From NCBI RefSeq assembly GCF_057098645.1, contig NZ_CM169472.1: a DNA stretch of 64,000 bases; one strand, written 5' to 3'. A program made the translations under genes and the position numbers. Below, one piece after another: positions 6,585 through 42,156 of this stretch. Each line of letters begins with the position of its first letter. Position 1 is the first letter of the stretch. The notes below the pieces were generated by a model that worked only from the letters and a program-made list of their open reading frames with translations, had not been told where the DNA came from and ran no database searches.

Positions 6585-6660
6585 GCCCGGATAGCTCAGT
6601 CGGTAGAGCAGGGGATTGAAAATCCCCGTGTCCTTGGTTCGATTCCGAGTCCGGGCACCA
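6585..6660 (+). tRNA. pheV: tRNA-Phe (GAA anticodon)
   Basis: 76 nt GCCCGGATAGCTCAGTCGGTAGAGCAGGGGATTGAAAATCCCCGTGTCCTTGGTTCGATTCCGAGTCCGGGCACCA; cloverleaf with GAA anticodon in the loop; called pheV by synteny with yqgA. Confidence 0.95.
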
Positions 6661-6857: not shown

Positions 6858-8120
6858 ATGGCACTGACTGACGCAAAAATCCGGGCTGCAAAGCCCACTG
6901 ACAAGGCTTATAAACTCACTGACGGGGCCGGCATGTTCCTGCTGGTTCATCCTAATGGTTCCCGTTACTGGCGTCTCCGTTATCGTATTCTGGGTAAGGA
7001 GAAAACCCTGGCACTTGGTGTGTATCCCGAAGTTTCTCTCTCCGAAGCTCGTACAAAACGGGATGAGGCCCGAAAACTGATTTCGGAGGGGGTTGACCCT
7101 TGCGAACAGAAAAGAGCTAAAAAAGTAGTCCCTGATTTACAACTCTCTTTTGAACATATTGCACGACGCTGGCATGCCAGTAATAAACAATGGGCACAAT
7201 CACACAGCGATAAAGTACTCAAAAGCCTCGAGACACACGTTTTCCCCTTTATCGGCAACCGGGATATCACAACACTCAGTACCCCGGAGCTGCTTATCCC
7301 TGTTCGTGCTGCAGAAGCTAAACAAATTTATGAAATCGCCAGTCGTCTGCAGCAAAGAATATCTGCTGTAATGCGTTATGCCGTACAGTCTGGCATCATC
7401 AGATATAACCCGGCTCTGGATATGGCTGGTGCATTGACCACGGTAAAACGCCAGCATCGCCCTGCTCTGGATCTTTCACGCCTGCCTGAACTTCTGTCGC
7501 GTATTGACGGTTATAAAGGCCAGCCTGTCACCCGACTGGCAGTTATGCTGAATTTACTGGTTTTTATTCGTTCCAGTGAACTCAGATATGCCCGCTGGTC
7601 TGAAATTGATATTGACAATGCCATGTGGACTATTCCAGCCGAACGCGAACCTCTGCCAGGCGTAAAATTTTCATACCGGGGCTCCAAGATGCGAACACCA
7701 CATCTTGTGCCACTCAGCCAACAGGCTGTAGCCATACTGGCAGAACTTCAGACATGGGCAGGTGAAAATGGTCTGATCTTTACGGGAGCACATGACCCAC
7801 GTAAACCAATCAGTGAAAACACCGTAAATAAAGCCCTGAGGGTTATGGGGTATGACACAACCCAGGATGTCTGTGGTCATGGATTCCGGGCGATGGCATG
7901 TAGTGCATTAATAGAATCAGGTTTGTGGTCCCGCGATGCTGTAGAACGCCAGATGAGCCATCAGGAGCGTAATGGTGTACGTGCTGCGTATATCCATAAA
8001 GCCGAACATCTGGAAGAACGTCGACTTATGCTACAGTGGTGGGCAGATTTTCTGGATGCGAACAGAGAACAATGTATCAGCCCGTTTGAATATGCAAAGA
8101 TTAACAATCCATTAAAATAG
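6858..8120 (+). CDS. P4-type tyrosine integrase (phage/island integrase)
   Basis: 420 aa ORF MALTDAKIRAAKPTDKAYKLTDGAGMFLLVHPNGSRYWRLRYRILGKEKTLALGVYPEVSLSEAR... typical N-terminus of P4-like integrases; sits immediately 3' of a tRNA gene. Confidence 0.9.
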   Translation: MALTDAKIRAAKPTDKAYKLTDGAGMFLLVHPNGSRYWRLRYRILGKEKTLALGVYPEVSLSEARTKRDEARKLISEGVDPCEQKRAKKVVPDLQLSFEHIARRWHASNKQWAQSHSDKVLKSLETHVFPFIGNRDITTLSTPELLIPVRAAEAKQIYEIASRLQQRISAVMRYAVQSGIIRYNPALDMAGALTTVKRQHRPALDLSRLPELLSRIDGYKGQPVTRLAVMLNLLVFIRSSELRYARWSEIDIDNAMWTIPAEREPLPGVKFSYRGSKMRTPHLVPLSQQAVAILAELQTWAGENGLIFTGAHDPRKPISENTVNKALRVMGYDTTQDVCGHGFRAMACSALIESGLWSRDAVERQMSHQERNGVRAAYIHKAEHLEERRLMLQWWADFLDANREQCISPFEYAKINNPLK

Positions 8121-9279: not shown

Positions 9280-9797
9280 ATGTCTGACCGCGCCACTACC
9301 ACTGCTTCCTTAACGTTCGAGTCGCTTTATGGCACACATCACGGCTGGTTGAAAAGCTGGCTGACGCGCAAACTCCAGTCTGCTTTTGATGCAGATGACA
9401 TTGCCCAGGACACTTTTTTGCGGGTAATGGTCAGCGAAACGCTCTCGACGATCCGCGATCCTCGCTCCTTCCTGTGCACTATCGCCAAACGCGTGATGGT
9501 GGACCTGTTTCGCCGAAACGCGCTGGAAAAAGCGTATCTGGAGATGCTGGCGCTTATGCCGGAGGGGGGAGCGCCTTCACCTGAGGAACGCGAAAGCCAA
9601 CTCGAGACCCTACAACTCCTCGACAGCATGCTGGACGGGCTAAACGGCAAAACACGTGAAGCGTTTCTGCTTTCGCAACTGGATGGTCTGACATACAGCG
9701 AGATTGCGCACAAACTCGGTGTTTCCATCAGCTCCGTGAAAAAATACGTGGCGAAAGCCGTCGAGCACTGCCTGCTGTTCCGTCTGGAGTATGGGTT

Positions 9798-9801
<4 letters not shown>
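9280..9801 (+). CDS. fecI: ECF sigma factor FecI
   Basis: 173 aa, sigma-70 region 2 and region 4 features; first gene of the fec locus. Confidence 0.92.
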
Positions 9802-13162
<3,361 letters not shown>

Positions 13163-13206
13163 TGTGTTAACGCCCGGCTTGCCGGGCTTTTAGCTGGAAT
13201 GTGATT

Positions 13207-14109
13207 ATGTTGGCATTTATCCGTTTTCTTTTTGCAGGCCTGCTGCTGGTGATCAGCCACGCCTTTGCCGCCACGGTTCAGGACGAACACGGCACGTTTA
13301 CACTCGAAAAAACGCCACAACGGATTGTGGTGCTGGAACTCTCGTTCGCCGATGCGCTGGCCGCCGTGGACGTCAGCCCGATCGGTATTGCCGACGATAA
13401 CGATGCAAAACGCATCCTGCCCGAAGTGCGTGCGCACCTGAAACCGTGGCAGTCCGTCGGAACGCGCGCGCAGCCGAGCCTGGAAGCCATTGCCGCTCTG
13501 AAACCAGACCTGATCATTGCCGACAGCAGTCGCCATGCGGGGGTTTACATCGCCTTGCAGCAAATCGCGCCGGTACTGCTGCTTAAGTCCCGCAACGAAA
13601 CCTACGCTGAAAATTTGCAATCTGCGGCTATCATCGGCGAAATGGTGGGTAAAAAGCGAGAGATGCAGGCACGTCTGGAACAACATAAAGAGAGGATGGC
13701 GCAGTGGGCCAGCCAGCTTCCCAAAGGGACACGCGTGGCCTTTGGCACATCACGCGAACAGCAATTCAACCTGCATACTCAGGAGACCTGGACCGGCAGC
13801 GTGCTGGCCTCTCTGGGGCTGAACGTTCCCGCTGCGATGGCGGGTGCGTCCATGCCGTCCATCGGCCTGGAGCAACTGCTGGCGGTCAATCCTGCCTGGC
13901 TGCTGGTTGCCCACTATCGCGAAGAGAGCATTGTTAAACGCTGGCAACAAGATCCGCTCTGGCAGATGTTAACCGCCGCGCAGAAGCAGCAGGTTGCTTC
14001 GGTCGACAGTAACACCTGGGCGCGGATGCGCGGTATTTTTGCTGCAGAGCGTATTGCCGCTGACACGGTAAAAATCTTCCACCATCAGCCGCTTACCGTT
14101 GTGAAATGA
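13207..14109 (+). CDS. fecB: Periplasmic ferric citrate binding protein FecB
   Basis: 300 aa from the ATG at 13207 (MLAFIRFLFAGLLLV...), signal peptide. Confidence 0.9.
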   Translation: MLAFIRFLFAGLLLVISHAFAATVQDEHGTFTLEKTPQRIVVLELSFADALAAVDVSPIGIADDNDAKRILPEVRAHLKPWQSVGTRAQPSLEAIAALKPDLIIADSSRHAGVYIALQQIAPVLLLKSRNETYAENLQSAAIIGEMVGKKREMQARLEQHKERMAQWASQLPKGTRVAFGTSREQQFNLHTQETWTGSVLASLGLNVPAAMAGASMPSIGLEQLLAVNPAWLLVAHYREESIVKRWQQDPLWQMLTAAQKQQVASVDSNTWARMRGIFAAERIAADTVKIFHHQPLTVVK

Positions 14110-15104
14110 CCGCGATAAAACACCCGGTGCTGCTGTGGGGGCTTCCCGTTGCAGCACTTATTATTATTTTCTGGCTGAGTCTGTTTTGCTACTCGGCCAT
14201 TCCTGTTTCCGGAGCAGATGCAACCCGCGCCCTGCTGCCTGGACACACGCCAACGCTACCAGAAGCGCTGGTGCAAAACCTTCGTTTGCCACGAAGCCTC
14301 GTCGCCGTTCTGATCGGCGCAAGCCTGGCGCTCGCGGGCACGCTGCTGCAAACCCTGACCCACAACCCAATGGCCTCTCCTTCACTGCTCGGCATTAACA
14401 GCGGCGCGGCGCTGGCTATGGCGCTTACCAGCGCGCTGAGTCCGACGCCGATTGCAGGCTATTCTCTGTCGTTCATCGCGGCATGCGGGGGCGGCGTGAG
14501 CTGGCTGCTGGTCATGACCGCAGGAGGCGGATTTCGTCATACCCATGACAGAAACAAACTGATCCTCGCGGGTATCGCGCTGTCGGCCTTTTGTATGGGC
14601 CTTACCCGCATCACCCTGCTGCTGGCCGAAGATCATGCTTACGGCATCTTTTACTGGCTGGCAGGCGGAGTGTCCCACGCCCGCTGGCAGGATGTCTGGC
14701 AGCTCTTGCCGGTGGTGGTCACTGCAGTCCCTGTCGTGTTGCTGCTGGCGAATCAACTGAACCTGCTCAACCTCAGCGACAGCACCGCCCATACGCTGGG
14801 AGTGAACCTGACGAGGCTACGTTTGGTCATCAATATGTTAGTGCTGCTTCTGGTTGGTGCGTGCGTTAGCGTGGCAGGTCCGGTGGCGTTTATCGGTCTG
14901 CTGGTGCCACATCTGGCGCGCTTCTGGGCAGGCTTCGATCAGCGCAACGTACTGCCAGTGAGCATGCTGCTGGGGGCCACGCTGATGCTGCTGGCAGATG
15001 TACTCGCACGCGCGCTGGCCTTCCCCGGAGATCTGCCCGCAGGCGCAGTGCTGGCGCTGATTGGCAGCCCTTGCTTTGTCTGGCTTGTGAGGAGGCGAGG
15101 ATGA
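14106..15104 (+). CDS. fecC: Ferric citrate ABC transporter permease FecC
   Basis: 332 aa FecCD-family permease, multiple TM helices. Confidence 0.9.
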   Translation: MTAIKHPVLLWGLPVAALIIIFWLSLFCYSAIPVSGADATRALLPGHTPTLPEALVQNLRLPRSLVAVLIGASLALAGTLLQTLTHNPMASPSLLGINSGAALAMALTSALSPTPIAGYSLSFIAACGGGVSWLLVMTAGGGFRHTHDRNKLILAGIALSAFCMGLTRITLLLAEDHAYGIFYWLAGGVSHARWQDVWQLLPVVVTAVPVVLLLANQLNLLNLSDSTAHTLGVNLTRLRLVINMLVLLLVGACVSVAGPVAFIGLLVPHLARFWAGFDQRNVLPVSMLLGATLMLLADVLARALAFPGDLPAGAVLALIGSPCFVWLVRRRG

Positions 15105-27625: not shown

Positions 27626-29012
27626 TGGTTGCCTCTGGCGCAGTTTGCGGTGATGCCGTTCCCGGGAATGGATTGCCAGTGCGGGGACTGTGGAGCTTAA
27701 TTCCGGTGTTGGTGGCCTTTCCGTTGATTTTGAGCCAACAGCCCTCCTGTGACTGACAGGCTGCCTCGTCATTCCATACGTATCTTCAGGTGAACAGATG
27801 CATGTCTGAGCGTACTCACGCAGCCGGCCCGGCAACCGCGGTGGTACTACGCTGGCTGCGAGAAAATACAGAAAGCACCAGAATACGCTCTCCTGTTGCT
27901 GATCAATCAGGATCTCATGCACCTACCGGGATCTAGGGCTAGAACTGATGAAACCGATTCGCACCTGGCTGAGTTAATGCTACAGGCCAGGGCATCACTA
28001 CCCCCTGACGAGCACTGTACTGTGGTATGCAGTTACAGGGGGCGTGTGCAGCCACACCTGAAAGCAGTGAGTCGTTCACGGCATTCAAAAACACGTGCCT
28101 TTCGTTCGCCGTTCCTGTGATGGCCGGCATCATTTGCTAAGCCGTTACCGACGTTATTCCCTCCGGGACACGCCTCTGGTTGAGGCTTTGCCCGGAGCAA
28201 TCGAATGAAAATAAGTTAAGTCACCGAAAGGGAGGATGTAGTCAACCGGGGGAACAGTAATAAGCCGTCGTGCTTTTATCGTACAAGTGTGTTGCGTTTT
28301 GCACCGAAAATACGATAGAGGTCGTTTATGGATTCCGCAGGGAGTGCTGATTATTATTCACTGGCAGCAGACAGCGATGTGTGTGCAGGCATTCAGGGGG
28401 ATGTTGTCAGCAGAAGGGTGCGTATAGCAGATTGTTGTTATACATGGCGTATGAAGTATTACCAGTCATGCGGAGTAGTGTGGTGAGGGGCTGTATGAGA
28501 AATCGCCACCTTCTTGTCAGAGAGGGAACGCTACCATGAAAGTCAAAAGCGATAACGCAGACCGGTACGATCGGTAGGTAAAACTGTAGCGGTGTGCTGC
28601 CGCCGAGGTCAGAATAATCTGCGCGTTTTTACGCCAGCGCCACCGACGAACAGCAGGAGATTGAGGGGAATTTGGCGGCGATAAAGACGTAGAAGAGAAA
28701 AACGGGCAATTTGCCGCATGCCCACAGAATCAGTGAGATCGTTAGCGACAGCAAAATGATCGGCAGCCAGCGGCGGCCTGCAATATCGGGATGAAGGAGA
28801 TCCTACGATATCGATGCTGCACCTGATATGTACGATCAGTAAATAGAGTACGAAACAGCAAACACGACGATAATAACGCTGGCAGCGGTGCCTGTCAGGC
28901 AAACGCCCACACGCAATAAAATAAATCAACCATCGCAGGGCCGTGATCATCCGCATACACCGCTGATGACGCGTCTAAAAACGCGTCAATATGACTTCCC
29001 CGGAACATTACC

Positions 29013-30254
29013 TCATTTCAGGGTATGGAGAATTTTTAACATCGAGTTATCTATGGTCTGTTTGACTTTTTCGTAATAGATCGGTTCAGATAATGACGAA
29101 TCCCAGGTATGAATATCGTTCTTATTAAAAGGAATGCATTTCATGGCTACTGCCTTTAACTGTTTCCCTTTTTGCTCATACTCATTGATATCATTAATGG
29201 TAAATTTCAAACTCTCTTTTCTTGCTTCTGTTATTTCAGTTGGGCATACCAGCTTTATATCTCCTAAGGTAAATGTACTGACCCCGGTGATGAAAAATCT
29301 CTCGGGGATTTCTGTATAGTGCCGAGTATTCCAGATTAAGCCATTAAACATACTATGAGAATGAGTTTTATTTTCGATATAATACTGATGCGTTCTCCAG
29401 TCACTAATGCCTGAGAGACTCATTACCATATTAATGATCATATTTGGGATAGGGCGATACCACATACTGAATACAGTAATTACAACTGGTATGCATATTA
29501 AAACAACTATGAATCCAGTGAATTTATCACCATTTCTGCGCTCATTAAGATGTATGGCACCAGGCAGAATGCCAATAGTAACAATAGCTGCTGTTAAGGC
29601 AAGGAGCATTAGCATTTCAACCAAATCACTTGTCTCCTCACTAAAATCAAGTTGGGTAAGCAGAAATAACATAGGTAATATTTGAACGATCCCGGGAGTC
29701 ATAAATTGCAAGGGTAAAAAACATAACAATCCTGGTTTTCTTGGTAATTTCTCATAGTTATCAGATTTATGCCAACTAAATCTCTTTGTTTTAAATAGAT
29801 TAAAATAGGATACAAAATAACTAAAAGCAAGCATCAATACAAAACCGGTGATACTTATGGAATAACCATTCCATCCATAAAGATAGTAAATATAGTAGCC
29901 AACAATTATACTACAGCATATAAACAAGCTATTTAGATAACAAACAGTGGAAATTCGATGTGGTATGCTTGGATAATTTTTGAAATTATCTTCATGTAAT
30001 GTGTAAATGAGGATTAGAATAAAAGAGGAAATGAAAATTACTAAGCTAAACCCAGAAAACGATACTATTATAAAAACAAAAATGATACCTATGGCTGAAC
30101 TGAGGCTTACAGTATCAAAGAAAATATCTAATCTATCTATGTTTGACAGATAGAACCATATAACAGCCATTGTGCATCCAGTAATAAATGTAGATGAGGT
30201 TATTACTGAAATAATGAATTTTTTATTCAACAGCTTTATGACAGATTTATTCAT
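29013..30254 (-). CDS. AT-rich orphan gene: multi-pass membrane protein (about 8 TM) with a roughly 150 aa C-terminal soluble domain
   Basis: 413 aa ORF with strongly A/T-biased codons, unlike the surrounding DNA; hydrophobic helices through about aa 260; no recognisable catalytic motif. Confidence 0.65.
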   Translation of the reverse strand: MNKSVIKLLNKKFIISVITSSTFITGCTMAVIWFYLSNIDRLDIFFDTVSLSSAIGIIFVFIIVSFSGFSLVIFISSFILILIYTLHEDNFKNYPSIPHRISTVCYLNSLFICCSIIVGYYIYYLYGWNGYSISITGFVLMLAFSYFVSYFNLFKTKRFSWHKSDNYEKLPRKPGLLCFLPLQFMTPGIVQILPMLFLLTQLDFSEETSDLVEMLMLLALTAAIVTIGILPGAIHLNERRNGDKFTGFIVVLICIPVVITVFSMWYRPIPNMIINMVMSLSGISDWRTHQYYIENKTHSHSMFNGLIWNTRHYTEIPERFFITGVSTFTLGDIKLVCPTEITEARKESLKFTINDINEYEQKGKQLKAVAMKCIPFNKNDIHTWDSSLSEPIYYEKVKQTIDNSMLKILHTLK

Positions 30255-30884
30255 AATCCGAATTCCATACCTGATAAAATTCGTATTGTAGTGAGGACCG
30301 ATTTTTTGAGCAACTTATAACCATCGCTTAAAGCTACTTGCTACCATACATGCCGTTATCCCGAACCATAAAGCGCTTGGCAGTAACACCAACATCACAG
30401 ACAGATACTGCGGTTGCGCCAAATAAAAGAATGGCGGATAAGGTCGGCGGATTGCAACGTGATGCTGTGCTGTAGGATGACTTCTGCGGTCTCGTCCAGC
30501 GCCAGCCACTCCTGGCGGATTTTGTGTGGGGGCATGGTGTGTTCCTTTTTGTGTTGTTGGTTGCGTATAGTGCTTGTTGATGATGAAAACCGGTGTGAGA
30601 TATTTTTGCCAAAACAACTAACACTGATCAGTGTAGGTAACGAGCTTTTCAGACATAATATGGTGATGATTTACACTGGAAAAACAGGACGTAACACTGA
30701 ATAGCTCTGGAGACGATTTGCTTGAAGTGGCGTGCTATTTGTTGAAAGAAGAATTTCTGATGATACCTTATTTTAAAGGAGGCTAAAGGGAGAGGAGAGA
30801 GCCCTGTTGAAATCAACAGGACTTAATAGCTCCTCTCCGAAGGGCAAGGAGATCACCCGTGCGCCTGGTTAGGTGAAGAAGTAC

Positions 30885-32078
30885 TCAGCGTGGTTGCAGA
30901 CAGTTATCTTCTTTCCAGCCGTACAGCCACTCCATGCCGCGATAAAACTCTGCCTGCGATTTCCCTTTCCACAGCAGGTTACGAACCTGGCGTTCTACTC
31001 CCGCGGCGTGATAAACCCGTCCCATCTCACGGGTCGACCAGACAATACGCGCGGTGCGCGGAATACGTACCGACTCATACAGCGCAAAGGCTTGCGCCGC
31101 ATCACCCTCACACTGCGCCAGCGCCTTACCCAGCGTTACCGCGTCTTCCAGCGCCATACAGGCACCTTGCGCCATATATTGCGCCACTGGATGGGCTGCA
31201 TCGCCCACCAGCGTAATGCGGTTAGTGCCCCATTTCGCGACTGGTTCACGGTCGGCAGTTGACCAGCGTCGCCATGAAGTCGGTTTATCCAGCATCTGGC
31301 GCGGACGCGGGTGAATCCCCTCAAAGTAAGAGAGCACTTCCTCTTTACTGCCATCCTTCACGCCCCACTCTTCCTGCTGGCGGCTGTGGAATGTCACCAC
31401 CAGGTTATACTGCGTGCCGCCGCGCAAAGGGTAATGCACCAGGTGACAGTGCGGCCCCGCCCACAGTACCGGTGCGTTAATGCGCAAATCTTCCGGCATA
31501 TCGGCACAATCGATAACCGCACGGTAGACAACATGTCCGGTGACACGCGGCGCATCGCCCAATAAGCTCTGGCGCACCACTGACTTCACGCCGTCACAGC
31601 CAATCAGAATATCGCCGGTCCAGCTATTGCCGCGATCGTCAAACACGGTGACATCGTCTTCCGTCTCGCGAATATCCACGACGTTGGTGGAGGTGTGATA
31701 TTCCACGTCCGGATGCGTCAGTACCGCTTCCCACACCGAGGCGTGAATATCAACCCGGTGGATCACCGCGTAAGGACCGCCGAAATGGTCACGAAAGGCC
31801 TGCCCGGTTTCAATGCGCACCACTTCTTCGGCGTTCACCGCATCCATCATGGTAATGTGATCGGTAAACACCGCGCGCTGGCGGGCAACTTCGCCGACGC
31901 CGAGGCTGTCCAGCGCCGAAAACGCATTTGGCCCCAACTGGATGCCCGCGCCAATCTCACCGATCTCATGCGCCTTTTCCAGCAGCACCACTTTGATCCC
32001 CAGGCGGGCCAGTGACAATGCAGTTGCCGCACCGCCGATCCCGCCTCCCACAATTACTGCGCGTGTCACTTTCGTCAT
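30885..32078 (-). CDS. FAD-dependent aromatic monooxygenase, 3-hydroxybenzoate 6-hydroxylase-like (MhbM-like)
   Basis: 397 aa; N-terminal GGGIGG dinucleotide fold; DG and GD motifs of flavin hydroxylases; last gene of a gentisate-pathway operon. Confidence 0.8.
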   Translation of the reverse strand: MTKVTRAVIVGGGIGGAATALSLARLGIKVVLLEKAHEIGEIGAGIQLGPNAFSALDSLGVGEVARQRAVFTDHITMMDAVNAEEVVRIETGQAFRDHFGGPYAVIHRVDIHASVWEAVLTHPDVEYHTSTNVVDIRETEDDVTVFDDRGNSWTGDILIGCDGVKSVVRQSLLGDAPRVTGHVVYRAVIDCADMPEDLRINAPVLWAGPHCHLVHYPLRGGTQYNLVVTFHSRQQEEWGVKDGSKEEVLSYFEGIHPRPRQMLDKPTSWRRWSTADREPVAKWGTNRITLVGDAAHPVAQYMAQGACMALEDAVTLGKALAQCEGDAAQAFALYESVRIPRTARIVWSTREMGRVYHAAGVERQVRNLLWKGKSQAEFYRGMEWLYGWKEDNCLQPR

Positions 32079-32092
32079 TATAGTTCTCCTGG

Positions 32093-32740
32093 TCAGGCTG
32101 AAATTTTATCTTGTTGATTTTCTGGCGCTGCGGCAATGAACGCTGGCAGCTGTGTGCAGGCGTCGTACACCGCTTTGCAGCGTGGATACCCGCTCAAATC
32201 GCAGTTCATGCGTAGCGCGTTTGCCCACTGCGGGACAAGGCAGCAATCTGCCAGCGTCGGCGTCTCGCCCACACAAAATTGCCCCGACTGGTTCTGGCGC
32301 AACAGTTGTTCCACCGCGCTTAACCCTTGCTGGATCCAGTGCGCATACCAACGTTTTTTTTCTTCTTCACTGACGTTCAGTTCTTCGGTCAGGTAGCGCA
32401 GCACGCGCAAGTTATTTAATGGATGAATATCACAAGCGATGGCATAGACAATTTCCAGCACCTTGTTGCGGGCCGGTTCTTCCTGCGGCACCAGCGGAAC
32501 TTGCGGGTAGTGCCTCTCCAGCCAGTCAATAATCGCCAGCGATTGTCCGAGTGATTGGCCCTCGTCAGTCAGCAGCGTCGGCACCAGCCCGACCGGATTC
32601 ATCCGCCGATAGGCCAGTTCATTTTGCTGACCAATACGGATATTCACCCCTTCGGTCTGGTAATTAATGCCTTTCAGCGCCAGCGCAATGCGTACCCGGT
32701 ACGACGCTGAACTATTAAAAAAACTGTACAGCTTCATCAT
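32093..32740 (-). CDS. Glutathione-dependent maleylpyruvate isomerase (GST zeta-like; MhbI-like)
   Basis: 215 aa; GST N-terminal thioredoxin-like fold MKLYSFFNSSASYRVRIALALKGI... Confidence 0.8.
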   Translation of the reverse strand: MMKLYSFFNSSASYRVRIALALKGINYQTEGVNIRIGQQNELAYRRMNPVGLVPTLLTDEGQSLGQSLAIIDWLERHYPQVPLVPQEEPARNKVLEIVYAIACDIHPLNNLRVLRYLTEELNVSEEEKKRWYAHWIQQGLSAVEQLLRQNQSGQFCVGETPTLADCCLVPQWANALRMNCDLSGYPRCKAVYDACTQLPAFIAAAPENQQDKISA

Positions 32741-32745
32741 GCACC

Positions 32746-33447
32746 TCAGACAATCTTCACCGCGATAGGCGTTAAGCCCTCGACGTTGCCTGTGATCACA
32801 TCACCTTTCACTACCGGGCCAACCCCTTCCGGCGTACCGGTGAAGATCAGATCGCCCGGTTGCAGCTCAAAGAAGCCTGACAGATAGCTGATGGTTTCAT
32901 TCACCGACCAGATGAGATGGCGAATATCGCTGCGCTGATGATCTTCGCCGTTAACCTGTAACCAGATTGGCGCATTATCAATACCGCCGATATCGCGGGC
33001 TTTGTGCAGCGGCGCGATGGGCGCTGAGAGATCAAACGCTTTACCGATTTCCCACGGGCGGCCCATCTGGCGCATTTCCATTTGACGGTCACGCCGAGTC
33101 ATATCAAGACCCGTGGCATAACCCCAGACATATTCATGGGCGTGTTCCAGCGGGATATCGCTGCCTTTTTTACCAATCGCCACTACCAGTTCAATTTCGT
33201 AATGATAGTTATCGGTCTGCGCCGGATATGGCAGCGCCAGCGTTTCGCCAGCGGCGACCGGAATAACGGCATCTGCTGGTTTGCAGAAGAAGAAGGGTGG
33301 TTCACGATCCGGATCAAAGCCCATTTCGCGGGCGTGGGCGGCATAGTTACGCCCGACGCAGTAAACGCGACGCACGGGGAATTGTTTATCACTGCCAACA
33401 ACCGGTACGGTAACGGGCGCTTGTGGTTCGAATACATATTGAGTCAT
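32746..33447 (-). CDS. Fumarylpyruvate hydrolase (FAH family; MhbH-like)
   Basis: 233 aa fumarylacetoacetate-hydrolase-family protein. Confidence 0.8.
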
Positions 33448-33462
33448 TTTCTCTCTCCCAAA

Positions 33463-34491
33463 TTAATAACGCGCTTCGCGGAAAAGCCCCAGGGCTTCTT
33501 GTACCGGTCTGTCCGAAAAACTGAATAAAACGGTATCTTGCGTAGTCTGGAATGACACGCCGTGCCAGGTCGGCACCACAAAGATATCTTTTGCACTAAA
33601 GGTGAAGATTTCATTGCCGATGGTGACTTGTCCGCTACCTTCCACTACATGGTAGATAGTGCTGTCAGTGGTGCGCGCCACGCGGGAGGAGAACCCTTTC
33701 GGTAGCAGTTGCAGGAAAGCGCCCATCGACGGCATCGGATAGCCGCCGGTGACCGGGTTGACGTAGCGCATTTTGTAGCCATCCCATTCGTCGGCATCGC
33801 CCATGCGGGTTAAATCGTGCAGCACTTCGCGGCTGCGGTCATAACGATAGTTAAAGATCGGCGAGGAGTTCCCCGTCTGATGGCGCAGCGGCAACATATT
33901 GGCAGCGTAACGCGGCAGGTAATCGCCCTCTTTACGCGTTACCGGTTGTTGATCTTCCGGGTAATCTTCGGCAAAACCGCAGCCCAGAGTGTTCACTAAT
34001 GGCAGATCCAACCCATCGAGCCAGATAACCGGTTCGTCGCCAGGGTTGCCGTGATCGTGCCAGCGCCACTGCGGGGTCAGGATAAAATCGCCCTCATTCA
34101 TTGGCGTGCGTTCGCCGTCAACGGCGGTAAATGCCCCTTTGCCTTCAACAATAAAACGCAGCGCCGACTGGTTATGACGATGACTCGGTGCCACTTCGCC
34201 CGGCATGATCAGTTGCAAACCGGCATATAAAGTCGCGGTGATGGAAGACTGCCCTCGCAGCGCCGGGTTTTCCAGTACCAGCACGCGGCGCACCGCCTCT
34301 TTCGCGCCAATCAGGCTGCCGCTCTCCAGCAGCAGCGGGCGGATCTCCTGATAATTCCAGTACGCTGGCGCACAGTTAGCGTTGGGCGTTTTCGGCACCA
34401 GATGGTGCAGTGACTCCCACAGCGGGGTCAGGTTTTGCCCGGAAATATGCTGATAAAATTGTTCACGGCTATTTTGATTGTTATCAGTCAT
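33463..34491 (-). CDS. Gentisate 1,2-dioxygenase (bicupin; MhbD-like)
   Basis: 342 aa; cupin His motifs (...[14 protein letters not shown]..., ...WRWHDHGN...). Confidence 0.8.
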
Positions 34492-34502
34492 TGGGATGCT
34501 CC

Positions 34503-35861
34503 TTATTCGTTCACAACACCTGCGTGAGGCAGTGAGTCAGGGATAGAGGTCGACTGGCGAACCACGGTGATCAACAGGGTTAACATCACCGCACTGATCG
34601 CCGCAGGCACAGCGATAATGAAAAACAGGGTGTCGAAAGAGAAATTCATCGCCATCATCACGCCGCCAGACAGCGAGCCAACAATCGCGCCGCAGCGGCC
34701 CACGGCGTTTGACCAGCTCACGCCCGTGGCGCGACTTTGTGTTGGATAAAGTGTTGCGGTCAGCGCATTCAGCCCCACCTGCGATCCGCTGATGCCAATG
34801 CCGGTGCCGAAAATCGCCAGCGCCATCAGCCATAATCCATCCTGGCTTAAGCCAATCATCACGATGCATATAGCGCCTGTGGCATAGCTCAGCGCCAGTA
34901 CGCGGAAAGGATTGAACTTATCCATCAGCACGCCCAGCGCCAGCGCGCCCAACGTACCGCCAATCTGGAACGCGGCGGTAACCCAGGAGGCATGTTGCAG
35001 GTCGATGCCGCGATGGTTGAGCAGCGTTGGCATCCAGCTTGAGAGCAGGTAAATAATCAGCAAGCTCATAAAGAACACCACCCACAGCATCAACGTGATG
35101 GGTAACTGACGCCCCATAAACAGTTGACGAATGCTGCCTTTTGTAACGGAGGCTGATTCAATGAGATAAAACTGGGTATCGACATAACGCTCGCGGGTGA
35201 TGGCGCTGACGGTTTTCGCAATCACCGCCTGGGGTAGCTGGCGGCGCACTTGCCAGCGTGGCGATTCCGGCAGAACCACCAGCAGTGCAACAAACAGCAT
35301 CAGCGGTAATACGCCACCCAACACCAGGATCCCGTGCCAGCCAATCACCGGCACCAGCTGCGCGCTGACAATCCCGCCAACCGCCGAACCCAGGGTAAAG
35401 CCGCAAAACATCAGCGTCACCAGCGCGCCGCGGCGGCGGGCAGGCAGATATTCCGAGGTCATGGTGATGGTGTTCGGCATCGCGCCGCCCAGACCCAAGC
35501 CGGTGAGAAAGCGCAGGAAGACCAGAGTTTGCAGATCCGGAGAGAAAGCTGAGGCGAGGCTTAACGCGCCAAACAAAAAGACGCACAGCTCAATCACCCG
35601 CTTGCGACCAAAGCGATCGGACAACGGGCCACAAAGCAGTGCGCCTGCGGTTAACCCCAGCAGACCCGCGCCAAAAAGCGGGGCGAGATCGCCTGCGGTG
35701 AGTTGCCAGTGAGTGCGAATATCAGGGGCGATAAATCCGATAGCCGCGGTGTCAAAACCATCGAGCATTACCACCAGAAAACAGCAGATGATAACGCGCC
35801 ACTGCATCTTGCCGACCGGAGCAGCATCGATAAGTGCTTGTAGATCACGTCGTTGAGTCAT
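34503..35861 (-). CDS. MFS aromatic-acid transporter (3-hydroxybenzoate transporter MhbT-like)
   Basis: 452 aa, 12-TM MFS; first gene of the operon, divergent from a LysR regulator. Confidence 0.8.
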
Positions 35862-35987
35862 AGTAAATGCCTCAGTGCAGGTAAGGTAGATGTTTCTTTT
35901 GTTTTGTATATGTTGCGATATTGTGATTAAAGAGATGAAATGTACAATGGCATTTCGGGCAGAGAGATAACCTGGAGGTTATGGTAA

Positions 35988-36896
35988 ATGGCGAACTGGG
36001 CGCAAAAATTAAAACTACATCACCTTGAAATGCTGGTGGCGTTGGGTGAACAGGGCAATCTGACCCATGTCGCACGAATGATGAATATCACCCAACCTGC
36101 GCTTTCGAAATGGTTGTCACAACTCGAAGATGAGATTGGAATCACACTTTTTGAGCGGCACAGCAAAGGATTACGTCCGACTGAAGGCGGCAAATTGTTA
36201 TTGCAACATGCCCAACGGTTAATCAATGACATGGAGCGATCGCAACATGAACTGGCCCGTTTTAAACAAGGTGGACTGGTCGGCAGTCTGAAAATTGGCT
36301 GTTCTCCCGTCGCCACTGACTGCGTATCCCAGGCGATTTTGCATTTGCTTACGAAGATGCCAACTCTACACCTGAATATCGAAGAGAAGGTGATGACCCC
36401 ATTGCTGCAAGATCTGTTGGCAGGTTCTGTCGACGTGGTCGTTGGGCGAATTGGCGGTCGCGCCTTGCAACTGCCACTGAATTATCAGGTGCTGTACACC
36501 GAGCCAGTATGCTTTGTCGCCAGCCCTGAGCACCCACTGGCGAAATACGCCACCCTCAGTTGGAATGATCTTGCCAACTGGCGCTGGATCGTCTGGCCGA
36601 CGGGTACCCCCATTCGCATTAGTATTGATAATGCGCTGGTAGACCACGGCGTAATGCTGCCAGAAAACACGATTGAGTCGGCGTCGATGAACGTCAGTAC
36701 CAACCTGTTACAAAGCAGCGATATGATCTCTATTTTGTCATTACGCCTGGCGCAACGTTATGCCAGCCAGGGACAACTGGTGATACTCAACCTGCCAAAG
36801 ATAGAACAGAAAGGCAGCGTCGGTGTGTTCTGGCGCAATAACGAAACGCCTTCTTATGCTTTAAGTCAGTTTCTGCACTTTTTACAGCAGAATTAG
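35988..36896 (+). CDS. LysR-family transcriptional regulator (MhbR-like)
   Basis: 302 aa; N-terminal HTH (...LTHVARMMNITQPALSKWLSQLEDEIG...); divergent from the catabolic operon. Confidence 0.8.
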   Translation: MANWAQKLKLHHLEMLVALGEQGNLTHVARMMNITQPALSKWLSQLEDEIGITLFERHSKGLRPTEGGKLLLQHAQRLINDMERSQHELARFKQGGLVGSLKIGCSPVATDCVSQAILHLLTKMPTLHLNIEEKVMTPLLQDLLAGSVDVVVGRIGGRALQLPLNYQVLYTEPVCFVASPEHPLAKYATLSWNDLANWRWIVWPTGTPIRISIDNALVDHGVMLPENTIESASMNVSTNLLQSSDMISILSLRLAQRYASQGQLVILNLPKIEQKGSVGVFWRNNETPSYALSQFLHFLQQN

Positions 36897-37205
36897 TGTG
36901 CTGAACTGGGCATTCGCACGATGTTACTTCCCTGTAATTCAACGATGCGTAATTTTTCGGGGAATCGTGCACTGTGATAAGGCGTGATCTTTCATGGGGT
37001 GAAAATCCCACCAGGTGACTGTCGTTCCAGCCGGTAGCAGTCAAAGCAGTCGTGTGGGTAACAAAGCGGCTGATGTATTTGATGAAGAAGCTGTAGGTGT
37101 TTCAGTGAGTATACAGGTCATAATGTGAGTGAATCTGAGCAGGCCTCGAAAGAACCAATTGGAAGGACAACCCATTAGGAATTCCCAGAAAACAAGACAG
37201 GCATA

Positions 37206-37905
37206 GTGAGATGTGATCTAATTGATTGTGCTAGCAATTTCAAGGATATCACCACTATGCCTGCACGTTCATTATGCCAAAAATTCCTTAAAAACATACT
37301 GGCCACTTTGCATTTCTACCATCAAAAATCACTGATTGACGCAACAAATGCTGTAATAAATGGCGCTTCCCTCACGCTTAGCAGCATCGGGCGTCATTTA
37401 ACCAGACAGCATTAGTTAAAAACAAGATAAAGCGGGTGGATTGACCGTTGGGGAATTCTCAACTGAAAAATGATCTTCCCACCATTTTTCAGTTGGTTAC
37501 TCAAAAAAATACGCTGAGAATGTTCGTGTTGTTGTACGCCTTCGCCAGCAGTGGCAGGATGTTCAGGAGGAGTGTCGGCAGGCAGAGGTCGGATCAGGAG
37601 AGCGGCTGCGTAATGCCCTGCTGAATGTGGATTATACCACCAGTTTTGAACTGCCTTTTCGTCTGCTTTTAACCCGCACGTCACAGCTGATTGCTGTGCT
37701 TTGGGAAGAATGGGATATCAGCCAGAAAAATGTGGTGTTTAACGATAAACGCTTTGGTTGCGTGTATAGCCTGAAGGCCAGTCTTTCCGGCGTGCGGATA
37801 CATTCCGGTATCATCTGTCTCACCGTATTCGCCGGATGGTTGGGAATGAAATACATCATCGCCTTGGCAGCAGATTGCCCGGAAAGTGAAAGCGCTCCGT
37901 GAATG
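37206..37905 (+). pseudogene. IS4-family (IS10-like) transposase remnant, frameshifted and 3'-truncated
   Basis: Fragments ...SLTLSSIGRHLTRQH*, ...VKNKIKRVD*, ...IAVLWEEWDISQKN... in different frames resemble the IS10 transposase N-terminal region (TLTLTELGRNLPTKA..., NIKRIDRLLGN..., IVLVDWSDIREQKR as I recall it). Confidence 0.45.
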
Positions 37906-38082
37906 ACTTAAGTATGCGCTAGAGGAGGGATTACTGGTGACCGCACTGGACGGTCTGTTCTGGTCTGGTAGTCAGCGTATTGCGGAAGATATTCTGTGTC
38001 GTTACGGGGAAGTCATCTTCACAGGGATCTTCAGTCAGTTAGTATTACCGACATTCATTCACCAACTTACCGGAGATAATCG

Positions 38083-38412
38083 ATGTCAAAACCCCGATGG
38101 ACCATTGAACAGAAAAGGCAGCACGTTGCTGCCTGGCGCGCCAGTGGTCTTACACGTCAGCAATACTGTGAACTCAACGATATTCCCTTCACATCACTTC
38201 GCGAATGGCCGCAGGATGTCGCAAAAGCTGAACGCCGGGCAAATGAACCGACCGTTCTTCCCGTTCATATTGCGCCACCACTGCATGCTGATGTACCACA
38301 GCCCGTCACGAATGAGCCAGTCACGCTCTTCCTTCCCGGCGGAGTACGGATGTGCTGTCAGCCGTCACAACTTACCGATGTCTTCAGGGCGCTCAAATAT
38401 GCTCAGTCCTGA
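38083..38412 (+). CDS. IS66-family accessory protein TnpA (Orf1)
   Basis: 109 aa MSKPRWTIEQKRQHVAAWRASGLTRQQYCELNDIPFTSLREW... Confidence 0.75.
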   Translation: MSKPRWTIEQKRQHVAAWRASGLTRQQYCELNDIPFTSLREWPQDVAKAERRANEPTVLPVHIAPPLHADVPQPVTNEPVTLFLPGGVRMCCQPSQLTDVFRALKYAQS

Positions 38413-38791
38413 TAATGTCTTCATCGCGATTAAACCTGTTGACATGCGCCGGGGCATCGACACACTGACGCAGTATATACAGGATGAACTCCGGTCGACA
38501 TGGCATGAGGGAGCCGCCTTCGTCTTTGTTAACAAAGACCGTTCGCGTATCAAAGTTCTCCGGTGGGATAAACACGGGGTGTGGTTGTGTACCCGCCGTC
38601 TTCACAAAGGCAGCTTCCGCTGGCCACGTGCAAATGATGCTGCCTGGCACCTCACTCCCGACGAGTTTAACTGGCTGATTGCCGGTGTTGACTGGCAGCA
38701 GGTTAAGGGACATGGCCTGACGAAATGGGTCTGGCAAAATGAACCTGAACTGCGCCCTGAAAACACGCAAAACACACTGCTAACTCACTGA
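38399..38791 (+). CDS. IS66-family TnpB (IS66 Orf2-like)
   Basis: About 130 aa ...FIAIKPVDMRRGIDTLTQYIQDELRSTWHEGAAFVFVNKDRSRIKVLRWDKHGVWLCTRRLHKGSFRWP...; start overlaps the TnpA stop. Confidence 0.75.
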   Translation: MLSPDNVFIAIKPVDMRRGIDTLTQYIQDELRSTWHEGAAFVFVNKDRSRIKVLRWDKHGVWLCTRRLHKGSFRWPRANDAAWHLTPDEFNWLIAGVDWQQVKGHGLTKWVWQNEPELRPENTQNTLLTH

Positions 38792-38797
38792 AAAATA

Positions 38798-39830
38798 ATG
38801 AATATTCGTATCCGGAGTGGTATGCTCCCCTGTATGGATATCTCCGCTCTCAACACCACGAATGACATCGAAAAACTGCGTGCTATGGCACTTGCCATGG
38901 TACAAAAAGTCATGTCGGAGAATGCCGAAAAAGAGCGGGAATTACTGGAGAAAAGCCGGCGCATCCAGCTTCTGGAAGAAATGCTGAAACTGGTTCGTCA
39001 ACAGCGCTTCGGTAAAAAATGTGAAACGCTGGCTGGTATGCAACGCTCCCTGTTCGAAGAGGATGTTGATGTCGATATCGCCGAGCTCACCGCACATCTG
39101 GATAAACTGCTCCCGCAATCCCCTGAAGAAGACGAAAAAGCGTCCCGTTCACGCCCGATACGCAAACCCTTACCGGCTCATCTTCCACGGGTGGAAAAAA
39201 TTATCCAGCCGGACACTGACCATTGCCCTGAATGTGACGAGCCGCTGCACTATATCCGTGATGCGGTGAGTGAAAAGCTGGAGTATATTCCCGCTCACTT
39301 TGTGGTGAACTGTTATGTCCGTCCGCAATACAGTTGTCCCTGTTGCCAGAAGGTGTTCAGCGGTGAAATGCCGGCACATATCCTCCCGAAAAGTGCCGTT
39401 GAGCCATCAGTCATCGCACAGGTGATCATCAATAAATACGGTGAGCACCTGCCTCTGTATCGCCAGCAACAGGTCTTTGCCCGTTCAGATGTCGGACTGC
39501 CCGTCAGTTCGATGGCTGACATGGTTGGCGCGGCAGGGGCCGCATTATCCCCCCTCGCGGCGTTACTCCATCGCGAATTGATAAGCCGTCCGGTGGTGCA
39601 TGCAGATGAGACTACCCTGAAGATCCTGAACACGAAGAAAGGCGGTAAATCCTGCTCCGGTTATCTGTGGGCATACGTCAGTGGAGAAAGGACGGGACCG
39701 TCAGTTGTGTGCTTCGACTGCCGGACCGGACGTAGCCATGAGTATCCTGAAAACTGGCTTCAGGGCTGGGGCGGGACGCTGGTTGTCGACGGACATAAAG
39801 CTTACCGGACTCTGGCAAACAAAGTGCCGG
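38798..39830 (+). pseudogene. IS66-family transposase TnpC, N-terminal about 340 aa only (zinc finger + first two DDE motifs), 3' end replaced
   Basis: RFGKK, PLPAHLPR, CPECDEPL...CPCCQK, HLPLYRQ, VHADETT, GYLWAYV and VVDGHKAY motifs in IS66 order; similarity ends near aa 340; the conserved C-terminal GRKNW region is absent. Confidence 0.7.
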
Positions 39831-40441
39831 AGCTGGCGAATATCATCGGTCATCACGCGGGTATTGATGACAATACAGCGGCAAAAGCCATTGCCCATGC
39901 CATTCTCGGTGGTGTGACAGCAGCCCTTCAGGGCAACAGTGCGGCAGCAGGCGCAATTGGTGCGGGTACTGGTGAAGTGATCTCGTCAGCCATTGCGAAA
40001 AGCCTCTACCCGGACGTAGATCCGTCGAAACTGACAGAAGATCAGAAGCAAACCGTAAGCACGCTGGCAACGCTGTCAGCGGGTATGGCTGGCGGCATTG
40101 CCAGTGGCGATGTGGCTGGCACAGCTGCAGGGGCTGGTGTTGGGAAGAACATTGCTGAGAATAACTTGGTTGGTGGCACAGAGTCCGAGCAGAGCAAAGC
40201 TGCTCAGACGCATGGCGCAGATGTACTTTCCTGTAACGATGCTCCAGGCGGTGAAGCCTGTAAGCGAGGAGAAGCAGTCAATAAAGCGTATGCCGGAGCG
40301 TTGGCCACTGGTAGTGTAGCTCTCTTACCTGGCGGTGCTCAGGCCATGTGGGCTCTTGGCACAGGTGCAAATGCAGGAATTGGTTACATGGTAGATAGTT
40401 CAGTTGATCCTGAAAATGCAATCATTGCAGGATGGGTCTGA
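39831..40441 (+). other. Polymorphic-toxin-like fragment in frame with the truncated tnpC: Gly/Ala-rich pretoxin region with ENN motif (KNIAENN) plus about 90 aa glycine-zipper-like C-terminal piece; stop supplied by the IS629 terminal TGA
   Basis: ...SLYPDVDPSKLTEDQKQTVSTLATLSAGMAGGIASGDVAGTAAGAGVGKNIAENNLVGG... resembles CdiA pretoxin (PT-VENN) regions; the ORF ends exactly at the IS629 boundary (40439-40441). Confidence 0.45.
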
Positions 40442-40480
40442 ACCGCCCCGGGTTTCCTGGAGAGTGTTTTATCTGTGAAC

Positions 40481-41371
40481 TCAGGCTGCCAGATCATCGT
40501 TTCCGATGGAAGCATAATAAGCTTTTTCTGCTTCTGCCGGAGGAGTATGGCCCAGCCTTTCCAGCAATCGTCGATTGTTATACCAGTCCACCCACGTGAG
40601 TGTGGCCAGTTCCACTTCTGCACGGTTTTTCCAGCTCTTACGGTGTATTACCTCCGCTTTGTAAAGACCATTGATGCTCTCCGCCATCGCGTTGTCATAC
40701 GAGTCGCCTGTACTTCCTGTTGATGCCAGTAATCCGGCTTCCTTAAGCCGCTGTGTGTAGGCCAGCGATACATACTGAGAACCTTTATCACTGTGATGGA
40801 CCGTGCCGGACGGTCGACGGGCCCATAACGCCTGCTCCAGTGCATCCAGCACGAATGTCGTCTCCATGGACGATGAGACCCGCCACCCCACAATGTATCC
40901 GGCAAACACATCAATGATGAACGCCACATAGACGAAGCCCTGCCATGTGCTGACGTAAGTAAAATCAGCCACCCACAGCTGGTCAGGTCGTTCTGCCACG
41001 AACTGACGGTTTACGCGGTCGCCTGCGGCAACGGCTTTCCGGCTGATGGTCGTACGGACCTTTTTACCCCGGAGAACACCGGCAAGTCCCATAACCGCCA
41101 TGAGACGTGCCACAGTGCATCTGGCCACTCTGATACCTTCCCGTAACAACTGACGCCAGACTTTACGCACACCGTATACCTTGTGATTTTCATCGTATAC
41201 GCGCTGTATCTCTTTCTTCAGCCAGTCATCGCGCTGCGCACGGGCACTGCGTTTATCCGGATGATGTCGCTGTTGCTGACAGTGGTAATACGTTGACGGG
41301 GCAATATGCAGTTCGCTGCATAGCGGTCCGACCCCGTACTGCTCACGCAGCTTATCCAGCAGTGGCATCAT
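40481..41371 (-). CDS. IS629 OrfB
   Basis: Identical 296 aa translation to 18174-19064. Confidence 0.9.
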
Positions 41372-41694
41372 TTTTTCCAGAGGCGGTCGAACTCCGCCTT
41401 CGCAAAATAAGCGGAAGCCTGGCGAAGGATATCGTTACTGCGGCGCAGTTCACGATTTTCACGCTCCAGCTCTTTCAGACGCTGACGTTCAGCGGTGGTG
41501 AGCCCTCCATCACCGCCCCCGGTATCCCGCTCATGCTGGCGAACCCAGACACGCAGAGTCTCCGGCGTACAGCCAATCTTTGGAGCAATGGAACAAATTG
41601 TCGCCCATTGTGAGTCATATTCGCCCTGACTTTCCAGAACCATACGGACTGCCCGTTGACGGACTTCAGGGGAAAAACGAGTATTTTTAGTCAT
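41368..41694 (-). CDS. IS629 OrfA
   Basis: Identical 108 aa translation to 17851-18177. Confidence 0.9.
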
Positions 41695-41745
41695 CCTGTT
41701 TACCTCTTTCTCAGGAAGTTTAGTCTCCAGGATTCCCGGGGCGGT

Positions 41746-42156
41746 TCAATCAGTGTTTACTTCCCTGGCCTCGCTACCATTGGTATAGCTACTACAGTCT
41801 TCATCACTGCCACGCTCATTCTCACAGACATGTTTCTCGACCTTTCCAAGATATCTGACGCCTTTTCGCGGAATGGTTTTAATTAGAGAACTCGACAAAC
41901 CAGCGATGTCTAATGCCTTTCTAAGCATGTAAATCTGCCCATAATAACTGCTGTCGCTTACCGAACCTTTCTGCTCCCGCCAAACCTCATTGATAATATG
42001 TTGCTTATCGGATTCTCCCTGTAGTAAAAGGAGTAAAAATCGATAGCCGTTTTCAGACAGATTAATTACATTGCCTGTACTGGTGGTGATACGTCGAGAC
42101 GCTGGGTAAAACTTAACTCCCTGCCCTAAAGAAAAATAAAAACGGTCATCGCTCAT
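41746..42156 (-). pseudogene. ToxR/CadC-like winged-helix (OmpR/PhoB-type) transcriptional regulator, N-terminal 136 aa; 3' end truncated by IS629
   Basis: ...NGYRFLLLLLQGESDKQHIINEVWREQKGSVSDSSYYGQIYMLRKALD...IKTIPRKGVRYLG... winged-helix pattern; the stop codon is the IS629 terminal TGA. Confidence 0.55.

Follow-up and report, generated by a model that had tools for sequence, protein, structure and literature searches.

The 64-kb window analysed here (contig NZ_CM169472.1 of assembly GCF_057098645.1; all positions refer to this whole stretch) very probably carries an intact mhbR-mhbTDHIM unit for the use of 3-hydroxybenzoate and gentisate as carbon sources, in the form of an ectopic, Escherichia-derived copy residing on an island at a tRNA-Phe gene. 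The unit makes up a block at 30885–36896 (6012 bp), and the listing of open reading frames (ORFs) places six intact ORFs exactly there, five on the minus strand with 5–15 bp between neighbours, and a LysR-type gene divergent on the plus strand. A first-pass annotation of this DNA had proposed these gene identities, the order T-D-H-I-M and the divergent LysR regulator, and the ORFs at these coordinates together with their family matches bear it out. Frameshifts, which it had considered as a way in which the cluster might fail, were not found: none of the six frames is interrupted, and each is full length against the profiles. Moreover, window positions 30700–37100 are 100% identical to many E. 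coli O145:H28 chromosomes, whose RefSeq records annotate mhbT, gtdA, maiA, an FAH-family protein, a 3-hydroxybenzoate 6-monooxygenase and a LysR regulator, with none of the six flagged as a pseudogene. The cluster as such is present in 614 of 5426 complete E. coli genomes.

The predicted pathway begins with mhbT (34503–35861, minus strand), the first gene of the operon, which encodes a 452-residue protein of the major facilitator superfamily (Pfam MFS_1, 189 bits), putatively an aromatic acid:H+ symporter that would take up 3-hydroxybenzoate; the protein identical to it in RefSeq is named '3-hydroxybenzoate transporter MhbT'. The final gene of the operon, mhbM (30885–32078, minus strand, 397 amino acids), is predicted to encode a 3-hydroxybenzoate 6-monooxygenase that binds flavin adenine dinucleotide (FAD), scoring 757.5 bits on the NF006021 equivalog (cut-off 459), and would hydroxylate 3-hydroxybenzoate at C6 with NAD(P)H and O2 to yield gentisate. 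Both the GGGIGG FAD motif and Arg169 are present in MhbM, the latter being conserved in 67 of 67 aligned homologues; we take this arginine to be the residue that is essential in the M5a1 enzyme. Gentisate would then be opened to maleylpyruvate by the product of mhbD, also called gtdA (33463–34491, minus strand), a bicupin, Fe2+-dependent gentisate 1,2-dioxygenase of 342 residues that matches TIGR02272 with 603 bits (cut-off 442) and is ~97% identical over 342 amino acids to PDB 2d40, the enzyme of E. coli O157:H7. Its His104, His106 and His145, presumably the iron ligands, are in place and are conserved in 80 of 80 homologues. Maleylpyruvate would be isomerized to fumarylpyruvate by MhbI, a glutathione-dependent maleylpyruvate isomerase of the zeta-class glutathione S-transferase type (minus strand, 32093–32737 with the RefSeq start; the mechanical ORF, of 215 amino acids, starts at 32740), with 309 bits on TIGR01262 maiA (cut-off 171) and an E value of 1.9e-48 against PDB 2v6k/2jl4, deposited as 'maleylpyruvate isomerase'. 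Finally, MhbH (32746–33447, minus strand, 233 amino acids; Pfam FAA_hydrolase, 185.7 bits), a candidate fumarylpyruvate hydrolase of the FAH family, would release fumarate and pyruvate; it matches PDB 6j5y with an E value of 1e-112 and 4maq ('putative fumarylpyruvate hydrolase') with 4e-72. Thus three products, MhbM, MhbI and MhbD, pass NCBIfam equivalog cut-offs. The regulator gene, mhbR (35988–36896, plus strand), encodes 302 amino acids with the Pfam domains HTH_1 and LysR_substrate.

The two divergent arms are separated by a 126-bp control region, the mhbT-mhbR spacer (35862–35987), which contains invariant blocks in an alignment of 22 sequences from 14 named genera and one unclassified enterobacterium. 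Within it lies the palindrome ATAACCTGGAGGTTAT (35967–35982; ATAACC-TCCA-GGTTAT), the half-sites of which are invariant in all 22 aligned sequences. It is the sole match to ATAAC-N6-GTTAT in the 64-kb window, where 0.02 would be expected by chance, and it overlaps the Shine-Dalgarno sequence GGAGG of mhbR. The PcaQ box has the form ATAAC-N5-GTTAT (PMC3572157). Because the half-sites of the palindrome equal those of this box, and because the NCBIfam model closest to MhbR is that of PcaQ, we read ATAACC-N4-GGTTAT as the likely recognition site of MhbR. For mhbR itself there is a promoter-like TTGTGA-16-TACAAT at 35921–35948, with its −10 hexamer inside an invariant block and the palindrome downstream of it. 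The conserved alignment also points to a weak TTGTAC-18-CAAnnT as the putative mhbT promoter, and with this assignment the palindrome would be centred near −63, ~60–65 bp upstream of the mhbT transcription start, where LysR recognition sites usually lie. In the mechanism that we propose, MhbR would act as a LysR-type activator that binds the palindrome inside the mhbR leader, switches the operon on when the inducer is present and represses its own gene. Co-transcription of mhbTDHIM is likewise presumed, as are the operator and inducer assignments. No clear terminator was found. The strongest fold is a hairpin at 30790–30845 in minus-strand RNA (z = −3.05; −35.8 kcal/mol over a stretch of 101 nt) that straddles the left junction, pairing block sequence with island sequence just past the mhbM stop; it is devoid of a U-tract and its role as a terminator is uncertain. 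The other three tails fold no better than shuffled sequences.

All six mhb genes are under purifying selection, as dN/dS, the ratio of non-synonymous to synonymous substitution rates (Nei-Gojobori), is 0.03–0.10 for each of them in comparison with the native alleles of E. coli, E. albertii and Citrobacter. The window copy would be expected to allow growth on 3-hydroxybenzoate or gentisate, and the title of Robson et al. 1996, as it stands in the reference list of PMC3572157, tells of Klebsiella DNA that gave E. coli K-12 growth on 3-hydroxybenzoate, suggesting by analogy that an mhb cluster can be sufficient in an E. coli host.

Several points weigh against this interpretation. The functional case for the window copy, and for all island copies, is drawn from sequence. 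MhbH, MhbT and MhbR are identified at the level of the family, with their best NCBIfam equivalogs (YcgM-type FAH, PcaK and PcaQ, respectively; for MhbT also TIGR00895) scoring below cut-off, and their putative substrates are assigned from orthology and gene position only. Promoter and terminator scans performed at chance level, which is why the promoter positions given above are a reading of the conserved alignment. A repeat search detected neither direct or inverted repeats nor transposon or insertion sequence (IS) ends bracketing the 6.1-kb block. Furthermore, strain NCTC9100 holds a decayed remnant that covers the first 371 bp of the query only, and in contig JAIJJM010000061.1 (L050), binned as a Collinsella metagenome-assembled genome, a deletion has taken out mhbH completely, together with the 3′ end of mhbD and the greater part of mhbI; retention of the cluster is therefore not universal.

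One alternative is that the cluster is inert cargo, intact by chance or newly silenced, which is not expressed from the island and confers no growth trait. Besides the sequence-based nature of the functional case and the truncated or deleted copies elsewhere, it is favoured by the pseudogenes and IS debris that surround the block and by the island-type junction occurring in just 90 of 5426 complete genomes. These observations have to be set against the six open frames with all key residues conserved, the low dN/dS relative to native alleles, and a control region that is 99% identical to the native copy of O157 and retains the palindrome. In addition, the island copies of TK3046 and Z217-2, which diverge from the window by 1–2%, keep six intact genes. 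We consider it unlikely that the cluster is inert.

A second alternative holds that the real substrates are different ones, such as salicylate, other substituted hydroxybenzoates or gentisate only, and that 3-hydroxybenzoate is not physiological in E. coli. Metabolic models of enterohaemorrhagic E. coli (EHEC) list gentisate dioxygenase and a 'salicylate hydroxylase' among the EHEC-specific reactions (PMC3229490), and the latter may be MhbM. Similarly, the nearest solved structures of MhbM, the 4bjy/4bjz set (E value 2.5e-78), are deposited as 'probable salicylate monooxygenase', and MhbT scores too low to pass the cut-offs of the curated models nearest to it. In contrast, MhbM reaches 757 bits on the 3-hydroxybenzoate 6-monooxygenase model vs. 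139 on that of salicylate 1-monooxygenase (cut-off 446), is 91% identical to its orthologue in the K. oxytoca complex and retains the conserved Arg169, so that we regard a different set of substrates as very unlikely. As for the dioxygenase, PMC4585797 cites Adams et al. 2006 for the characterisation of the O157:H7 enzyme, and GtdA was among the O157 proteins identified in bovine-rumen proteomics (PMC9135228).

The relationships among alleles, with identities to the window taken over the 6012-bp block, point to the source of the intact unit. Island copies from other strains are 98.3–100% identical to it, followed by the O157-type native alleles (97.1–97.2%), the native allele of GPEC657 (95.6%), the copy on an IncF plasmid (94.7%), E69 (91.3%), E. 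albertii (90.0%), Citrobacter (81–82%), Trabulsiella and Serratia (80–81%) and K. oxytoca (78.6%), while the nucleotide identity of the Salmonella cluster is ~80.6%. E69 is labelled E. coli yet is a separate species representative, and may belong to a cryptic clade. The first-pass annotation had suggested a phylogeny of the dioxygenase against Klebsiella; the tree was run on the block instead, and in this neighbour-joining tree the island clade is nested within the native alleles of E. coli, beside the O157 type. Along the block, the identity between the window and the O157 native copy is a mosaic of 93–99% in 500-bp windows, which suggests recombination. Because the island copies group with the native alleles of E. 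coli (95–97%) and not with Citrobacter (81–82%) or K. oxytoca (79%), the donor of the block, judged from nucleotide identity, is Escherichia and not Klebsiella, Salmonella or Citrobacter.

That the GC content of the block exceeds that of its neighbours, as the first-pass annotation had pointed out, is correct: it amounts to 0.551 (0.50–0.59 for single genes) vs. 0.33–0.37 to the left (29000–30499), 0.43 to the right (37000–37499) and 0.516 for the window. At the native site, too, the cluster lies 3–5 points above its flanks in four taxa, namely E. coli O157 (0.549 vs. 0.50–0.52), E. albertii (0.538 vs. 0.497), Citrobacter (C. portucalensis, 0.555 vs. 0.51–0.52) and K. oxytoca (0.591 vs. 0.545–0.561), and for this reason the excess is no sign of foreign origin. 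The GC contrast in the window has two sources, an intrinsically GC-rich cluster and very AT-rich island neighbours. A recent import of the block from Klebsiella, Salmonella or Citrobacter, which its raised GC and the identical gene order in those genera might suggest, is extremely improbable, given identities of only 78.6–82% to these genera vs. 95–97% to native E. coli, the nesting of the island copies among E. coli alleles and the same GC excess at the native locus; we reject a Klebsiella or Salmonella donor on nucleotide identity and the tree. Of the earlier proposal that the cluster was acquired as a block, then, the acquisition stands and the use of GC as a sign of foreignness does not, since acquisition is best supported by the ectopic position of the cluster and by the empty native site in RM13516 and K-12.

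This native site lies between dusC and yohJ. The layout dusC, mhb cluster, yohJ-yohK-cdd was seen in E. coli O157:H7 EC4115, GPEC657 and Z1322HEC0005, in Escherichia E69 and in Salmonella, as well as in every locus of Citrobacter, the K. oxytoca complex, Raoultella, Kluyvera, Pseudocitrobacter, Pluralibacter, Shimwellia and Entomohabitans that extends far enough; the contig of E. albertii stops before the dusC side, leaving yohJ-yohK-cdd alone visible. In O157:H7 the native cluster sits in the backbone, and no mobility genes lie near it. On the most economical interpretation, dusC-yohJ would be the ancestral position of mhb in Enterobacteriaceae. In K-12 the site is empty, holding 123 unrelated bp vs. 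6185 bp in O157:H7, and a blastn search (word size 7) revealed no similarity of this filler to the ends of the mhb block and no deletion scar. The site is also empty in O145:H28 RM13516, the one O145:H28 genome checked, where dusC and yohJ are adjacent with 237 bp between them, and the O145 genomes have one copy of the cluster only. As a side observation, the first 18 bp of the K-12 filler (L005 4427–4549) also border the filled site in GPEC657 (L088 2940–3012). The filled native site occurs with two variants of the left end, of which that in O157 has an extra repeat-like, GC-rich stretch.

In the sequence of events that we favour, a 6.1-kb block from the native locus of Escherichia would have become a module of integrative islands at tRNA-Phe genes (pheV/pheU), and would now move with these islands in O145:H28, O103:H2 and other E. 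coli. The limits of the transposed block, set where homology to the native O157:H7 copy at dusC-yohJ ends, are 30832–36948 (blastn vs. L002 8001–14118, 96.8% identity). Homology between island and native O157 copies thus extends beyond the stop codons by 53 bp at the mhbM end and by 52 bp at the mhbR end, and on the right it stops within 3 bp of the point where the insertion of O157 relative to K-12 ends. We rejected a composite transposon or IS-bounded unit, as no terminal repeats turned up in the repeat search and the block lies between an AT-rich ORF and an intron fragment accompanied by IS debris.

The first-pass annotation was also right in placing AT-rich DNA and IS remnants at the flanks of the cluster, at 33–37% GC on the left and with ISEc60, IS66 and a truncated tnpC on the right. 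The left flank (29013–30535, minus strand, GC 0.33–0.37) contains a 385-residue ORF (29013–30170) and a 46-residue ORF (30395–30535), both annotated as 'hypothetical'. The former accompanies mhb in all four island copies fetched and the latter is annotated in three of these; for the 385-, 115- and 46-residue ORFs of this flank, Pfam and PADLOC returned no matches. On the right, 45 bp from the block, a fragment of a group II intron (36993–37128, plus strand) matches the domain 1–4 model Rfam RF02003 over its full length with 69.9 bits (gathering threshold 49; E value 7e-15) and is present in the island copies that have the same flank. With neither a D5-D6 match nearby nor a reverse-transcriptase ORF following, the intron appears truncated. 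Further right, at 37257–39792 on the plus strand, the RefSeq annotation of a 99.9% identical O145:H28 stretch (L001, offset ~10698) gives an ISEc60 (IS4-like) pseudogene, a DNA-binding pseudogene, IS66 tnpA and tnpB and a truncated tnpC; in the window, this IS66 matches Pfam TnpB_IS66, and DDE_Tnp_IS66 at profile positions 2–143 of 284 only. The same ISEc60/IS66 debris lies right of the block in every island copy fetched. A plus-strand frame of 547 amino acids at 38798–40441 is chimeric: its N-terminal portion, IS66 TnpC with a zinc finger and a partial DDE domain, continues in frame into a DUF637 region with a PT-VENN pre-toxin motif. The C-terminal part of this frame is an orphan cdiA C-terminal fragment, ended by an IS3 copy at 40439.

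On a larger scale, the block belongs to an island module of ~21 kb (19104–40439) bracketed by an inverted pair of IS3-family copies (17797–19106 and 40439–41750), and backbone DNA with the glc operon resumes from ~41749. The island is anchored at a tRNA-Phe gene, pheV (6585–6660, plus strand; ARAGORN), which is preceded by yqgA in a stretch 99.9% identical to the pheV locus of RM13516; the annotation of that locus (yqgA, tRNA-Phe, integrase) also identifies a tyrosine integrase at 6858–8120 (plus strand). Between the integrase and the first IS3 copy, the same pheV island carries a complete ferric-citrate uptake operon, fecIRABCDE (9280–16825). Within the module, an IS21-type element (22053–24693), with an istA-like ORF at 22175–23821 and an istB-like ORF at 23595–24593, is missing from the otherwise 99.9% identical modules of RM13514 and RM13516. 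The module is 99.9% identical to part of the O145:H28 RM13514 island beside cadC, which also bears Ag43, truncated efa1/lifA, nleE, nleB and espL2, and 99.3% identical to part of the pheV island in Z217-2; O103:H2 genomes carry it as well. In view of a 6.4-kb stretch that matches at 100%, we considered whether the window is the RM13514 locus beside cadC, and rejected this because the tRNA scan and flank searches show the pheV locus and a different mosaic. No complete genome of the collection has the exact arrangement of the window, the best single place covering 86% of it. In O145 RM8988-C1, the same two IS3 copies stand ~0.7 kb apart in the pheV island and the module lies in another island at ~5.09–5.12 Mb, which suggests IS-mediated exchange between two tRNA-Phe islands.

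Gene order was compared in 80 loci, obtained by scanning one genome per species for the dioxygenase and mapping the six window proteins onto each locus. The order R(−) T D H I M(+) is found in ~45 of 49 loci from species representatives of Enterobacterales, among them E. albertii, Citrobacter, Trabulsiella, the K. oxytoca complex, Raoultella, Kluyvera, Pseudocitrobacter, Pluralibacter, Serratia, Cedecea and Shimwellia, and Salmonella Infantis likewise matches the window. The arrangement that the earlier annotation gave for Klebsiella and Salmonella is therefore confirmed by the K. oxytoca complex and Salmonella. Proteins of the window are identical to those of K. oxytoca, K. michiganensis and K. 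grimontii at 83–84% (R), 86–87% (T), 89–90% (D), 91% (H), 84% (I) and 91% (M), whereas betaproteobacterial loci have different arrangements and dioxygenases that are 57–60% identical. The MhbR, MhbT and MhbM proteins of JAIJJM010000061.1 are 99–100% identical to those of the window, and the contig almost certainly represents E. coli DNA that was wrongly binned with Collinsella. Two records labelled as plasmids look chromosomal, namely NZ_CP148876.1 (Salmonella Infantis, 499 kb, with dusC, cdd, sanA and mdtQ) and NZ_CP134663.1 (E. coli, 4.9 Mb).

Genes, pathway and E. coli dioxygenase were all known before this analysis, and many RefSeq genomes already have the exact sequence annotated. Mildly new is the displaced Escherichia copy on a tRNA-Phe island, with the usual site empty in the one related strain checked; our literature searches linking gentisate with O145 or pheV returned nothing relevant. 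Cumulatively, the operon occurs in E. coli in three settings, the ancestral backbone site, tRNA-Phe islands (the 90 complete genomes with the island-type left junction, of 5426) and conjugative plasmids, and in O145:H28 RM13516 the island copy stands in for the lost native copy. It is conceivable, although we hold it to be doubtful as a whole, that the locus was lost from dusC-yohJ by most E. coli, recaptured within Escherichia into pheV/pheU islands and is spreading beside virulence modules, thereby giving cattle- and plant-associated lineages of Shiga toxin-producing E. coli (STEC) without a native copy a selectable use of plant-derived 3-hydroxybenzoate and gentisate. If true, O157:H7 would owe the trait to its native locus and O145/O103 to an island, that is, a convergence on one niche trait by two routes; and if the trait aids survival in the rumen or on plants, a metabolic fitness factor would be tied to virulence islands in non-O157 STEC. 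A more general caution is that raised GC is not proof of foreign origin.

Among known systems, one point of reference is Klebsiella pneumoniae M5a1, which we take to be placed now in the K. oxytoca complex. Its mhbRTDHIM cluster resembles that of the window in having six genes in the same order, with mhbM following mhbI, and a divergent mhbR, the product of which is a LysR-type activator (PMC3572157). The genomes of the K. oxytoca complex compared here, which are relatives of M5a1, share the control-region palindrome with the window, but differ from it in nucleotide sequence (78.6% identity) and in carrying the cluster at the native dusC-yohJ site and not on an island. The dioxygenase, isomerase and hydrolase chemistry is also that of gtdR/gtdA in Cupriavidus necator H16, where the regulator is of the LysR type, and of nagIKL in Ralstonia sp. 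U2 (PMC11603403); NagL of the latter is the PDB 2v6k protein matched by MhbI with an E value of 1.9e-48. According to the title of PMC11603403, the inducer in H16 is maleylpyruvate. Unlike the window, the H16 and U2 systems have a different gene order and distant sequences. Within E. coli, the native cluster of O157:H7 has the same six genes at 97.1% identity over 6.0 kb, and the difference is one of place, the backbone dusC-yohJ site vs. the pheV island. The plasmid copies of the IncF type (e.g. p1RM9088) also have six genes, at 94.6–94.7% identity, but lie between IS elements, an astA-bearing one to the left and IS1A to the right, keep none of the native flank and have the last ~55 bp of mhbR replaced, leading to a 308-residue product; they represent an independent capture. 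Closest of all to the window are the other island copies (in O145:H28, on the pheU-side island with efa1/nleB/nleE/espL2 and on the pheV island; in O103:H2; and in others), which are 98.3–100% identical and have the same flanks, while the tRNA-Phe site and the neighbouring modules vary between strains.

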